64,000 bases of DNA from a virus: positions 64,001 through 128,000 of the IMG/VR virus record IMGVR_UViG_3300034111_001103, one strand, 5' to 3'. A program made the translations under genes and the position numbers. Numbering within the stretch: position 1 is the stretch's first letter; every line of letters starts with the position of its first letter. Shown one piece after another: positions 18,961 through 23,694 of this stretch. The notes beneath the pieces are model-generated. The model saw only the letters and a list, made by a program, of their open reading frames with translations, made no database searches and had not been told where the DNA came from.

Positions 18961-19205
18961 ATTATTTAGTAATAAAAGATGATACAATAATACAAGTTTG
19001 TACTTCTGTAGAAGATTTATTAGAATATCTAGAAGTAAATGTTACTGATAAAGGAATTGTAAAAATTGGTAATAATAATTTACCTACTACTTATAATATG
19101 AAAGAATATACTAAAGAAGAAATAATATCAGATATTATAAAATATAAATTAAAAACTATAGAATCTGTGTTAAAAATTGGTATTTATAAATTAGAAAGAA
19201 TATAA
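18957..19205 (+). CDS. hypothetical protein
   Basis: ORF with ATGA overlap. Confidence 0.65.
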   Translation: MNYLVIKDDTIIQVCTSVEDLLEYLEVNVTDKGIVKIGNNNLPTTYNMKEYTKEEIISDIIKYKLKTIESVLKIGIYKLERI

Positions 19206-19210
19206 AAATT

Positions 19211-19501
19211 ATGATAGATATAAATAAAGAAGCAGAAGAATATGCTAAACAATTTGATTATCCTGAAGATTCTGCTCCATCAACTTGTTTTATAGCAGGA
19301 GCAAACTCAAAATATGTAAAAGAACAAATAATACAAGCTAAAATAGATGTATTAGATAATTGTTTAGCTGATATGTATCTTTATTCTAGTTTTGAAAATG
19401 GATTTGAACAATATTCTGATGCTTATTATAATTTAGAAAATTCATATAAAAAAAGTTTAAATAAACTTAGAGAAGAATTAAAACAATTACAAGATGTATA
19501 A
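19211..19501 (+). CDS. hypothetical protein
   Basis: ORF track. Confidence 0.65.
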   Translation: MIDINKEAEEYAKQFDYPEDSAPSTCFIAGANSKYVKEQIIQAKIDVLDNCLADMYLYSSFENGFEQYSDAYYNLENSYKKSLNKLREELKQLQDV

Positions 19502-19742
19502 AGACAAATATATAACATCAGAAAAACTAGAAGGTACATTTAGACAAGATTTACCAATAGGTAATTTTTTAATACAAGGTTATTGTAGATTTGGTATAGA
19601 AGTAGGAAAGCCTATAGATTTATTTAGTCATCTTATAAAAGGAGTTAGACCAGATTGTTGGACTTCTATAGTTAAAGAAATAAATGGAGATATTATTAAG
19701 ACAGAAAATAGTATTTATAAGATTACAATAAAAGAAAAATAA
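19494..19742 (+). CDS. hypothetical protein
   Basis: TS.V.EI....IKTENSIY motif. Confidence 0.65.
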   Translation: MYKDKYITSEKLEGTFRQDLPIGNFLIQGYCRFGIEVGKPIDLFSHLIKGVRPDCWTSIVKEINGDIIKTENSIYKITIKEK

Positions 19743-19743
19743 A

Positions 19744-20328
19744 ATGACACAAAAAATTAGTAGAGTTAATCTCAAAGTCATCTATGACAATGTTTGTCAA
19801 GATTGGAAAAATATAATAACTGATATGTTATTATGGAATGTAGAAAGTTCTATAGAAATAGAAGAAGAAACTATCTTAAAAGGATATAATCAAGCAAATT
19901 CTGAACAAAAAATATTATTAGAAAAATACTTTAAAATAAACACACCTAAAGACTTAACAAAAACATTAAAAACTTGGAAAGATGTGTTAAAATATGCTAA
20001 AGAAAAAGGATATAACTTTAAGTTACCTTATTCTGAAAAAACTCAAGTAAAAGAAGAAATATCTTTAAATGCTTTATGTAAAATACATTTATTAGCTAAA
20101 GTATTTAATGAAGATTGGACAGCAAATTTTAAAGACTCAACTCAATACAAATATTATCCTTGGTTTGAAAGAAAAAGTTCTGGGTGGGTCTTTAGTGTTG
20201 TTTATTATCGGGCTTCTGTTTCTTCTAGTGGCTGGGGTGCTCTTTCATACTTTAAAAGTTCAGAAATAGTAAATTATATCGGTAACAATAAAGAATTTGT
20301 AAATATTTATAATGAATATTTACAATAA
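19744..20328 (+). CDS. DGR target protein 1
   Basis: Contains VR1 near the C-terminus; paralog of 21454..21948. Confidence 0.9.
   Translation: MTQKISRVNLKVIYDNVCQDWKNIITDMLLWNVESSIEIEEETILKGYNQANSEQKILLEKYFKINTPKDLTKTLKTWKDVLKYAKEKGYNFKLPYSEKTQVKEEISLNALCKIHLLAKVFNEDWTANFKDSTQYKYYPWFERKSSGWVFSVVYYRASVSSSGWGALSYFKSSEIVNYIGNNKEFVNIYNEYLQ
20178..20249 (+). repeat. variable repeat VR1
   Basis: Aligns to TR1 with 17 mismatches, all at TR adenines, plus a 3-nt insertion. Confidence 0.93.
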
Positions 20329-20347
20329 AGTTAATTATTTTATATTA

Positions 20348-20416
20348 TTCTAGGTAGGTCTTTAATGATGTTAATTATCAGAATTCTAATTCTAATAGCT
20401 AGAGTACTCTAACATA
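20348..20416 (+). repeat. template repeat TR1
   Basis: Intergenic, AAT-rich, 23 adenines; enclosed by a 13-bp IR 20328-20340/20431-20443. Confidence 0.93.
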
Positions 20417-20519
20417 TTTTGTATTTAAAGAAATAATTAACTTATCCTATAGGATAAAAATCAAGAAATATTTTAAAAAGTGTTTGGTAGGTCTATTCTC
20501 GAAGAACATTTAAATTAAT

Positions 20520-21470
20520 ATGAAAAGAATAGGAAATTTATACAATCAAATATGTGATAGAAATAATATAGAATTAGCTATAAAAAATTCACAAAAAAGT
20601 AAGAAGAAAAATAAGAATGTTATAGAATTTAACAAAAATTATGAAAATAATTTAGAAATTTTAATAAATTTACTAAAAGAAGAAAAATATGTTATTTCAG
20701 ACTATAAAATAAAATATATTAAAGATGGAAATAAAATAAGGGAGTTAAAGATACTCCCTTATTTTCCAGATAGAATTATACAACATTGTATATTAAATAT
20801 AATATCTTTTACGTTATTAAAAACTTTTCCTACTAATACTTATTCAGCAATTAAAAATAGAGGTATACATAAGTGTTTGTACAAGTTAAAAAGTATAATA
20901 AATAAGTATGACTATTGTTTAAAACTGGATATTAAAAAATATTATGAAAATATAGATAATGACATATTAAAATCTTTTCTTTTAAAAAAATTTAAAGATA
21001 AACAATTATTAGATTTACTTTTTCATATAATAGACAAAGAAAAGGGATGTGTAATTGGCTCTTATTTGTCACAATGGTTTGGTAATTTTTATTTATCTTA
21101 TTTTATACACTATTTAAATGATAAAAAAGATATTAAAGTTTTAGTTTATATGGATGATATTGTTATATTAGGTAATAGTAAACAATTATTGTATGATTTA
21201 AAGTTAGAAATAATAGAATATTTAAGAACTAAACTAAAGTTAGAATTAAGTAATCATCAAGTATTTTCTCTTACACAAGGTATAGATTTTTTAGGCTACA
21301 AAACATTTAAAACACACATTTTAATAAGGAAAAGAATAAAATTAAATTTTATTAAAATGATTAAAACAAATTATAATGAAAAGTCAATTAATAGTTATTT
21401 AGGTTGGCTTTGCCACGGAAATACATTAAATTTACAACAAAAATACATTAAAAATGCAAAAAACAATTAA
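20520..21470 (+). CDS. DGR reverse transcriptase
   Basis: DRIIQH, LKLDIKKYY, IGSYLSQ (DGR-type GxxxSQ), YMDD, GIDFLGY. Confidence 0.95.
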   Translation: MKRIGNLYNQICDRNNIELAIKNSQKSKKKNKNVIEFNKNYENNLEILINLLKEEKYVISDYKIKYIKDGNKIRELKILPYFPDRIIQHCILNIISFTLLKTFPTNTYSAIKNRGIHKCLYKLKSIINKYDYCLKLDIKKYYENIDNDILKSFLLKKFKDKQLLDLLFHIIDKEKGCVIGSYLSQWFGNFYLSYFIHYLNDKKDIKVLVYMDDIVILGNSKQLLYDLKLEIIEYLRTKLKLELSNHQVFSLTQGIDFLGYKTFKTHILIRKRIKLNFIKMIKTNYNEKSINSYLGWLCHGNTLNLQQKYIKNAKNN

Positions 21471-21948
21471 TTTAACAAAAAAAGAAGCTATTAAATTTTA
21501 TAATAGTGCACAAGATCAAGGATTTAAAGATTTATTAGAAACAAATTTTGGTAAAGATTTCTGGAAACAAGAAATTACAGATTTAGTATATGATTTAGAT
21601 TCTTTAAAAGAATATTGTAAAAATAACAATATATCTTTTTCTTTACCTTATCTTTGTGATACTCAAGATAGTTTAGAAAAAACATTAAATGCTACTTACA
21701 TATTAGCAAAAGTTGCTAAAATATATAATAAAGGAACTATTTTAAATTGGAAAAACAATAATGAATACAAGTATTTACCTTATTTATATTTTTCTGGTGG
21801 TTCTGGGGTTGCTGCTGGTGTTTCTTTTTATTGGGATTCTGATTTGTTTGCTTCTTATTGTTTGTACTATAAAAACTCAAATTTAAGCACAAAATCTTAT
21901 AATAACTTTAAAAAATATTGGGAAGATTATTGGGGAGTAGAACAATAA
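21454..21948 (+). CDS. DGR target protein 2
   Basis: Contains VR2; LPY..LNA..AK.YN..NW.N..EYKY.PY shared with target 1. Confidence 0.9.
   Translation: MQKTINLTKKEAIKFYNSAQDQGFKDLLETNFGKDFWKQEITDLVYDLDSLKEYCKNNNISFSLPYLCDTQDSLEKTLNATYILAKVAKIYNKGTILNWKNNNEYKYLPYLYFSGGSGVAAGVSFYWDSDLFASYCLYYKNSNLSTKSYNNFKKYWEDYWGVEQ
21790..21868 (+). repeat. variable repeat VR2
   Basis: Aligns to TR2 with 18 adenine mismatches, one C>T and a 3-nt insertion. Confidence 0.93.
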
Positions 21949-21971
21949 TATAAAAAAGAGATAAATAAATA

Positions 21972-22047
21972 TTTTCTAGTAGTTCTAGGGTTACTAATGA
22001 TTCTAATAATTGGAATTCTAATTTGAATACTCCTAATTGTTTAAACT
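21972..22047 (+). repeat. template repeat TR2
   Basis: Intergenic, 23 adenines; enclosed by an 11-bp IR 21959-21969/22067-22077. Confidence 0.93.
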
Positions 22048-22182
22048 TAATTATAATACAAACAATTTTATTTATCTTAACCTATTGGTTAAAAAAACAA
22101 GCAAAATCTTAAAACAAATCCCTTAGTACCTTTAGTGTGGAAAAGGGATTTTTTAATTAAGTACAAAAATATAAAGTAAAAT

Positions 22183-22368
22183 ATGGAATTACCAATATTA
22201 ATACCTACAATATATGTAGATACTCCAGAACATAAAAAAACTATTCAATATGGGAAATATTTAGTAGTAAGAAAAGATGGTAAAACTCACTTAGAAACAT
22301 TTAATGGAACTGGATGGGCTTATAATCATAATACTATTATAGCTTATTATTTACCTAAAATTAATTAA
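22183..22368 (+). CDS. hypothetical protein
   Basis: ORF track. Confidence 0.65.
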   Translation: MELPILIPTIYVDTPEHKKTIQYGKYLVVRKDGKTHLETFNGTGWAYNHNTIIAYYLPKIN

Positions 22369-22527
22369 AAATGAATTATTTAGATACATTAAAACAAAAA
22401 AAATCAATAGATACAGAGTATGAAACTCAAAAAGAGTTATTATTACAACAAATAACTAACATAAATACTCTATATAGTAAATATAATGGAGATTTTTTAA
22501 AAGAATTAAGTCAATTTACTAAAGATT

Positions 22528-23217
22528 ATGAAGAAAGAAGAAAAATTAAATTGGGACAACTTCTCACTGAAATTTCATCCAACTTGGAGAAACAAAATGA
22601 AAAAAATAGTGGAAAGCCCTCAATTATTTCAGATATTCCAAGAACTGAAGAAGCAATCTAGCCAAGGAAACAAATTATATCCTCAAAGTAAAGATATATT
22701 TGAATTTTTAAATTTTGATATATCTAAACTAAAAGTATTAATCTTAGGAGATATTCCTCATACCTATAGTAATGGGATATGGTTAGATTGTAGTAATAAC
22801 ACAATAGTTTCTAAAGATTTAGAATATTTTTATAATAATATAGAAAAAGATCTTTATAACCTAGATTTTAACTATGATAGAAACAATAAAAGTTTAGAAT
22901 ATCTTAAGGAACAAGGGGTTATATTATCTTCTTGTTCTTTAGTATCTAATAATATAGAACTTTTTAAGCTTTTTTGGAAGTTAATGTTTGAAGAAATCTT
23001 TAACACACAAGCAGGTTTACATATTATAGCTGTAGGAAAAGAAGCTCAAAAAATATTAGTAGAGAACTCAGAACCTTTTATACACTATACTTATTACCTA
23101 GAATCTTGGGATAAAACTCTAGAATATCCTAAATTTAATACTTTTTCTATTATAAATAAACTATTAGAAAAAGATAATGGTAAAGAATTTACAATACAAT
23201 GGCTAAAAACAATTTAA
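22528..23217 (+). CDS. uracil-DNA glycosylase-fold protein, catalytic motifs degenerate
   Basis: W..LYP..DIF, LKVLILGDIPH (cf. VKVVILGQDPY), L..QGVIL, terminal IQW; no HPS motif. Confidence 0.7.
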   Translation: MKKEEKLNWDNFSLKFHPTWRNKMKKIVESPQLFQIFQELKKQSSQGNKLYPQSKDIFEFLNFDISKLKVLILGDIPHTYSNGIWLDCSNNTIVSKDLEYFYNNIEKDLYNLDFNYDRNNKSLEYLKEQGVILSSCSLVSNNIELFKLFWKLMFEEIFNTQAGLHIIAVGKEAQKILVENSEPFIHYTYYLESWDKTLEYPKFNTFSIINKLLEKDNGKEFTIQWLKTI

Positions 23218-23388
23218 AACATCTATTATTAATACCTTGTATAATATTTATAACTCTAATAATGAAAGATTTGACAAATATTCCTTTAGTAAGAGATTGG
23301 TTATATTTTATATTATTAGAGTTTTTCTTACAAGTATATTATAATAGAATAGTAAAAGAAGATTTATAAATAATAAAATAAATAAAAA

Positions 23389-23694
23389 ATGAAACAAGTA
23401 AATATAAAAAAACAAAAAATAGTATTAACAGGATATTTATTTAATATATTACCTGGAATTTTAATAACAGATGATCATAAAGAACAATTTGAGTATCATT
23501 TTGAAAAAAAAGATATATTAGATATTATACTAGATAATATTTCTGACTATAACAGTAAAAAAACAGTAACTTTAGATAAGTTGACAAATCAAGAAATTAA
23601 CAAAGCTGTTTATATTTGTCAACAAATAGTTCAAGATGTAGACTATGCTAACAATTTATTTGCTTTGAGTAAAAAATATAGAGGTTTATTATAA
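23389..23694 (+). CDS. hypothetical protein
   Basis: ORF track. Confidence 0.7.
   Translation: MKQVNIKKQKIVLTGYLFNILPGILITDDHKEQFEYHFEKKDILDIILDNISDYNSKKTVTLDKLTNQEINKAVYICQQIVQDVDYANNLFALSKKYRGLL

Follow-up and report, generated by a model that had tools for sequence, protein, structure and literature searches.

One reverse transcriptase flanked by two target-template pairs in a phage diversity-generating retroelement

The biology of diversity-generating retroelements (DGRs), and the directed-evolution tools based on them, assume one reverse transcriptase (RT) and one template RNA. The subject of this analysis is a DGR locus with a single RT and two template repeats (TRs), each matched by a variable repeat (VR) in its own target gene. 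The locus resides in a freshwater phage known from IMG/VR virus record IMGVR_UViG_3300034111_001103, a genome of 168,934 bp that is bounded by direct terminal repeats and rated 100% complete by CheckV. Coordinates without a prefix refer to the window, a stretch of 64,000 nucleotides spanning bases 64001-128000 of that record. An earlier note on this DNA proposed that the RT serves two distinct templates, and the order it gave, target1-TR1-RT-target2-TR2, is borne out by the open reading frame (ORF) map, with all parts on the + strand. The features are as follows, Sp1 and Sp2 being the spacers that follow TR1 and TR2.

19744..20328, +: target gene 1, ORF of 194 aa, paralog of target 2
20178..20249, +: VR1, 72 nt, encoding residues ~146-169 of target 1
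20348..20416, +: TR1, 69 nt, non-coding, placed by alignment to VR1
20417..20519, +: Sp1, structured spacer RNA (scaffold) separating TR1 from the RT start, from alignment fold, covariation and covariance-model match
20442-20457 and 20480-20509, +: hairpins 1 and 2 of Sp1, from the consensus fold
20520..21470, +: RT, ORF of 316 aa, DGR-type, sole RT of the genome
21454..21948, +: target gene 2, ORF of 164 aa
21790..21868, +: VR2 in target 2, 79 nt, placed by alignment to TR2
21972..22047, +: TR2, 76 nt, placed by alignment to VR2
22048..22167, +: Sp2, second copy of the scaffold, from alignment fold, covariation and covariance-model match
22077-22092 and 22116-22151, +: hairpins 1 and 2 of Sp2, the latter followed by a T-run, from the consensus fold and sequence reading

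The two repeat pairs

Each TR closely trails its own target gene, as had been claimed, with TR1 beginning 20 nt past the stop of target 1 and TR2 24 nt past the stop of target 2. Target 2 itself starts inside the 3' end of the RT gene, with an overlap of 17 nt, and both VRs are situated in the last quarter of their target ORFs. In one-gap alignments, VR1 differs from TR1 at 17 of the 23 template adenines and at no other base, and VR2 differs from TR2 at 18 of 23 template adenines plus one C>T, which reproduces the earlier counts exactly. Absent from the earlier note is that each VR is 3 nt, or one codon, longer than its TR. Across both pairs, template adenines account for 35 of the 36 mismatches.

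The genome is very AT-rich, with A at about one-third of template bases, and this composition lends some colour to the idea that ordinary duplication or gene conversion produced the repeats, the adenine bias being a matter of chance. At such a share of A, however, the observed concentration of mismatches is far beyond chance; hand arithmetic from the alignment counts, with A taken as ~1/3 of template bases, gives P ~1e-8 per pair for the pattern seen (17/17 and 18/19 mismatches on A). An adenine-tolerant diagonal scan, using 19000-23500 of the window as template and the whole 168,934-bp genome on both strands as target, returned these two pairs only, with no further such pair in 169 kb. Moreover, a DGR-type RT lies adjacent, and the same adenine bias is present in every relative discussed below. 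Coincidence is therefore a vanishingly improbable account of the repeats.

TR1 and TR2 are separated by 17 non-adenine differences and an indel, and alignments are poor when TR1 is set against VR2 or TR2 against VR1. Neither TR could thus have written the VR of the other module, and the contention that the templates are too divergent to cross-template holds. Cross-templating by a single TR is ruled out on the same 17 differences.

Both TRs are rich in AAT, AGT and ACT codons, and their adenines occupy mostly codon positions 1-2. TR1 additionally holds two in-frame TAG triplets (20354-20356 and 20398-20400) where VR1 reads TGG (Trp). These triplets are also present in the relatives L011, L013 and L184, and the TR1 of L014 has TGG instead. 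A faithful copy of such a template would yield a stop codon, and only A>G gives the near-invariant Trp, Leu having been seen once. This is an unusual template design, as typical TRs avoid codons mutable to stops.

The extra codons of the window lineage, which includes L006 and L010, map to 20217-20219 in VR1 and 21810-21821 in VR2. Alternative VR1 alleles are shorter by one codon, or longer elsewhere (P0123/P0177, 192 aa; P0124, 194 aa). Each extra codon may represent a repeat copy of an adjoining template codon that underwent adenine mutation separately; in one instance GGT GTT faces just one GAT of TR2. The pattern suggests slippage of the RT on an AAT/TCT-repetitive template.

The reverse transcriptase and the spacer RNAs

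The RT matches RVT_1 (E 1.2e-14) and phrog_1423 (E 8.5e-90), and carries IGSYLSQ at residue 179 and YMDD at residue 210, corresponding to the DGR-type motifs [I/L/V]GxxxSQ and YxDD. Its best solved relative, matched over nearly the full length, is PDB 8ub7_A (E 3.1e-25), a 328-residue RT, a length that would fit bRT. Its tblastn matches include RTs of crAss-like phages and annotated phage DGR RTs, at 38-44% identity, as well as RTs of Bordetella phages. The complete, terminally repeated genome contains one RVT_1 match, that of the RT at 20520-21470, so that the whole-genome check for a second RT proposed in the earlier note came out in favour of a single enzyme and a second RT in the genome is ruled out. 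No match to PF05635, the accessory protein Avd, was detected at E<=1 in the whole genome, a search that covers PF05635-type proteins and not a very divergent helical accessory protein; small ORFs nearby are likewise without a Pfam match.

The ~100 nt that follow TR1, up to the ATG of the RT, are homologous to the sequence 3' of TR2. An alignment of Sp1 and Sp2 with the same regions of five relatives gives a consensus fold of two hairpins joined by an A-rich linker. In this alignment 95.4% of cells are paired and compensatory change is found in 8 of 14 pairs; none of 500 shuffles matched the observed covariation, and slid controls paired only 39-57%. Neither spacer shows any change in the A-rich linker or in the loop bases of hairpin 2. 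When the derived covariance model was applied to the whole genome, two matches were obtained, at 20417-20525 (E 1.4e-16) and 22052-22167 (E 1e-17), with the next best at E 0.27. Together with the adenine-tolerant scan, this search rules out that the genome holds a third template or a third scaffold. Rfam families gave no match in 19500-22400.

The model also matches the TR-RT spacer of single-template relatives outside its training alignment (L051, L002, L049, L097, L054, L039, L146, L131 and L138). The scaffold is thus the Sp-like element of this RT family and has been duplicated in the window along with a template and a target. The second hairpin of Sp2 is GC-richer and followed by a T-run, and may double as an operon terminator.

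Layout and turnover of the modules in relatives

The relatives are contigs, the window genome being the only complete one. Exact-protein look-ups yielded eight loci with an RT 99% identical to that of the window, all with the flanking two-module layout and adenine-only pairs, and further lineages that share both features at RT identities of 84, 83, 77 and 60%. In four lineages the adenine/non-adenine mismatches of the upstream and downstream pairs are 17/0 and 19/1, 19/0 and 20/0, 11/0 and 16/1, and 19/0 and 15/0. Two modules with adenine-only pairs are found in L011, L013, L014, L015 and L017 (RT 56% identical in the last), and two are also found in L185 (RT 55% identical), where the downstream pair has 4 non-adenine mismatches. 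A multi-module layout is present in every examined relative with RT identity of at least 53%, and the closest single-module relative seen is L186 (51%), which has the downstream module only. The recurrence of two TRs among RT homologs, proposed as a check in the earlier note, therefore extends across a clade from ~55% to 100% RT identity.

The relative at the 53% limit, L184, has three modules, each with a scaffold and with pairs at 16/0, 18/0 and 19/0; on its 89-kb contig (L184:2388-5262) one module is upstream and two are downstream of a single RT, all pairs being adenine-only. Cassette copies per RT among the relatives thus number 1, 2 or 3. In 142 further loci with RT identity of 41-56%, one TR was found in 132, none was detected in 8, and two were found in 2, namely L017 and L046, the latter in a different order.

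The targets themselves carry a record of this layout. In the target tree, the upstream targets of the window, L003, L011, L013, L014 and L185 form one clade (support 97/99), and the downstream targets of the same loci, together with that of L015, form a second (100/99). The duplication accordingly predates these lineages, and both copies have been kept. Modules are shuffled in L017 and L184, and this disorder in more distant relatives is a feature that would favour two separate DGRs, one of them RT-less or using an RT from the host or a co-infecting phage. Such an arrangement is highly improbable. The complete phage genome has one RT, the modules abut it on both sides, and target 2 overlaps its stop by 17 nt; the layout is kept in all examined relatives with at least 53% RT identity, the nearest single-module locus being at 51%; and both scaffolds belong to the family that adjoins this RT clade in single-template relatives.

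Three side observations concern these loci. In L015 (L015:2798-3300) the upstream target is broken twice, by a TGA where Trp is conserved and by a frameshift within an A9 stretch, and its VR/TR pair is nonetheless clean (19/0); continued rewriting of a pseudogene, a fault in the assembly, or a phage that reads TGA as Trp would each account for this. In L046 (L046:490-2881), an unrelated-looking locus with an RT 43% identical to that of the window, both target-TR modules are upstream of the RT, with pairs at 15/1 and 14/1, and the scaffold covariance model found no match. In L018, L020 and L021 a single TR serves two or three tandem VRs, the usual multi-target solution, unlike the window's clade, in which the templates themselves are duplicated.

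At non-adenine positions where the TRs of six lineages differ, each VR was compared with the TR of its module; for module 1, 146 of 155 cells show the same base in both, and for module 2, 119 of 125. Since the VRs follow the non-adenine changes of their own templates, TR-to-VR transfer must have occurred repeatedly in both modules after the lineages split. Over shorter times the picture is drawn from a set of nine near-identical genomes, in which TR1 and Sp1 show no variation, the RT has 5 variable positions in 951 nt, and all 14 substitution-variable columns of VR1 fall on TR1 adenines. At least 7 VR1 peptide alleles occur in the 90% protein clusters, with differences confined to residues 151-165. 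VR1 also differs between genomes with identical VR2, in support of the independent diversification that the earlier note had supposed.

Probably (about 0.8), the locus is one RT with two complete paralogous cassettes, a single enzyme rewriting two proteins from two templates. The sole RT, the shared scaffold, the kept layout and the tracking of each VR to its own TR all speak for this reading, and with it for the central proposal of the earlier note. Several observations weigh on the other side. VR2 has 2 alleles on 25 contigs, identical target 2 proteins occurring on 10 and 15 of them; of its 12 variable columns, 10 coincide with TR2 adenines. Within either of two close lineages VR2 does not change, while VR1 varies. 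With 2 alleles against at least 7, module 2 turns over much more slowly than module 1, and may be rarely used or currently off. VR1 is itself fixed on the 12 contigs of the window's own lineage, and the 3-nt insertions imply that neither VR has lately been overwritten by a same-length cDNA. Furthermore, the VR/TR homology extends no more than a few nt from the last variable adenine, and neither VR is followed by a recognizable canonical GC-rich initiation of mutagenic homing (IMH) site or conserved hairpin, by criteria that derive from GC-rich systems and may not suit this AT-rich genome. Lastly, as the relatives are contigs, a second RT may lie elsewhere in their genomes.

The most serious competitor holds that only module 1, with its canonical target1-TR1-Sp1-RT order, is in use today, module 2 being a recently silenced or very weakly used duplicate whose adenine pattern would date from past activity. 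The contrast between 2 VR2 alleles on 25 contigs and at least 7 VR1 alleles fits this account, as do the single non-adenine VR2/TR2 mismatch in each lineage and the insertion in the window's VR2, still not overwritten. It is nevertheless judged rather unlikely, given that VR2 mirrors the non-adenine changes of TR2 across the six lineages and that the relatives' downstream pairs are clean, at 19/1, 20/0, 16/1, 15/0, 15/0 and 18/0 adenine/non-adenine mismatches. Every invariant scaffold position is kept in Sp2, and the downstream target clade is retained family-wide. A measure of how a disrupted module decays is provided by L185, in which an IS200/IS605 element (Y1_Tnp with a TnpB-like OrfB; L185:4518-6142) separates TR2 from its scaffold, adjoining hairpin 1. 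Its TR2/VR2 pair already has 4 non-adenine mismatches, exceeding any intact module, and its intact upstream pair has 0. This apparent natural knock-out suggests that the scaffold must stay adjacent to its template. From the allele counts we infer a lower present-day activity of module 2 within the two-template system.

Two further features of the close lineages were noted. Between the two closest, the target2-TR2-Sp2 block is ~5% divergent, compared with no more than 0.6% for target 1, TR1, Sp1 and the RT, which suggests a recombination breakpoint near 21650 and a putative exchange of the downstream module (21650-22160 versus 19744-21649). In L006 and L010, a 1-nt insertion at 19806, within a run of A close to the 5' end of the target 1 gene, cuts the called ORF to 181 aa (P0173, P0174), the contigs being otherwise identical.

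Under the two-template reading, each cassette consists of a small target gene with a C-terminal VR, its own TR ~20 nt past the stop, and a two-hairpin spacer RNA of ~100 nt. The locus would be transcribed in the + direction, with hairpin 2 of Sp2 and the T-run as terminator. The Avd-less RT would recognize the shared scaffold, prime in or beside it, and copy the adjoining TR to cDNA with misincorporation opposite adenines. Each cDNA would then replace only its homologous VR, TR1 acting on target 1 and TR2 on target 2, independently of one another. Transcription of the locus, the site of priming and the use of both RNAs by the RT are steps that we infer from the arrangement and conservation of these parts.

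Target proteins and comparison with known systems

Targets 1 and 2 are paralogs (32% identity, E 8e-11) without a Pfam or NCBIfam match. Target 1 matches phrog_11581, which is annotated as of unknown function, and PHROGs give no function for the targets; homologs of target 2 are hypervariable in the VR region only. An AF2 model of target 1, at a confidence (pLDDT) of 85, shows a helical protein with a β hairpin, in which the VR is a loop of low confidence. Foldseek searches of this model against the PDB returned nothing at E<=0.001, the best VIA-align score was Z 4.7, and fold and feature searches of the Atlas with the target returned viral hypothetical proteins only. A C-type-lectin or Ig-like fold, which is typical of DGR targets and does not define them, was not detected by the fold searches of the target model.

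A complex of target 1 with target 2 was predicted with a score of 0.68, against 0.01 for the best control, and so clears a mark that 58 of 80 solved complexes attained, as did 2 of 110 mismatched pairs. Contacts agree to at least 85% between the three runs, and the pLDDT of the partner is 76 or more. The predicted interface follows the conserved long helix, and the VRs contribute residues 160-167 (target 1) and 134-137 (target 2) to it. Because the chains are paralogous, a passing score may reflect a homodimer interface of the family; the prediction supports, without showing, a target1-target2 heterodimer. On this model the two targets might pair such that their variable loops make one surface. 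The claim that diversity would be combinatorial, if the two proteins act together, gains model-level support from the predicted heterodimer. In theory the two repertoires would together amount to about 3e11 x 1.6e13 peptide variants.

A more speculative extension, offered as a tentative possibility, is that target, template and docking RNA form a portable cassette, open to duplication and shuffling around one Avd-less RT, and that its duplication turned a homodimeric binding protein into a heterodimer with two separately rewritten loops. If true, a heterodimer with two template-rewritten loops beside the predicted interface would multiply its repertoire in the manner of antibody heavy and light chains.

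The locus is a DGR by every defining feature tested; Avd, a common and non-universal component, was not found. With the DGR of Bordetella phage BPP-1 (mtd-VR, avd, TR, Sp, brt) it shares adenine-specific TR-to-VR transfer, a VR at the 3' end of the target, a structured spacer after the TR next to the RT, and the RT motifs given above. Unlike BPP-1, which has one template-plus-scaffold module, it has two, one of them downstream of the RT; it lacks a detected Avd and a visible GC-rich IMH, its VR/TR repeats are short (69-79 nt), and its targets, at 164-194 aa, have no detectable C-type-lectin fold.

The earlier note had taken one TR per RT as the rule, which is overstated, as DGRs with several TRs have been reported (PMC6642488; PMC12386605). 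In the MetaCSST survey a single TR was present in 216 of 271 multi-VR DGRs, implying ~55 with more, and Stenotrophomonas sp. SKA14 was listed with two TRs and six VRs (PMC6642488). Like the window, these loci have several templates, each with its own VRs. They are, however, cellular loci whose targets are of the DUF1566 type. The survey does not describe the flanking target-TR-RT-target-TR order, and its listing is computational, made without tests of a single RT, a scaffold or concerted evolution (PMC6642488). A further parallel is found in crAss-like phages, where more than one TR likewise lies beside one RT: the Zeta phage Lera has TR1-TR3, and ct1yV3 also has more than one (PMC12386605). 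Of the Lera templates, TR1 alone belongs to an adenine-only pair (TR1-VR1), and TR2 and TR3, with 3 and 10 other substitutions, are read as former pairs (PMC12386605), whereas both pairs of the window are clean and co-evolving. Most crAss-like phage DGRs are without Avd, which Lera has (PMC12386605). The targets in these phages are tail-fibre proteins, in contrast to the small proteins encoded near replication genes here. In the portions consulted of Wu 2018 (PMC5758913), Roux 2021 (PMC8144416) and Paul 2015 (PMC4372165), multi-TR loci are not discussed.

One RT with several templates is thus not a new kind of system. New here are the complete phage genome with one RT, modules that abut this RT on both sides, and a covarying scaffold for each template, together with clade-wide vertical retention, concerted evolution in both modules, and a copy number of 1-3 among relatives. 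The target family, predicted to pair, is also new. The clade provides evidence from nature, tested by evolution, that a small Avd-less RT can serve two or three templates if all of them share the ~100-nt scaffold. With this scaffold delimited to two hairpins and invariant loop and linker bases, the requirements that a DGR RT places on its template RNA become testable, and the locus points to a compact multiplex design. The targets, small phage proteins, make up this new family, whose candidate roles are receptor binding and intracellular counter-defence.

A promoter and terminator scan of this AT-rich DNA was uninformative, with 30 promoter-like sites against 30.1 expected and 0 terminators by the loop rule. 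The locus neighbourhood consists of replication genes, encoding a primase-like protein, a helicase, a family A DNA polymerase and a ribonucleotide reductase. The nearest named relatives of the polymerase are those of crAss-like phages, at 27-28% identity.

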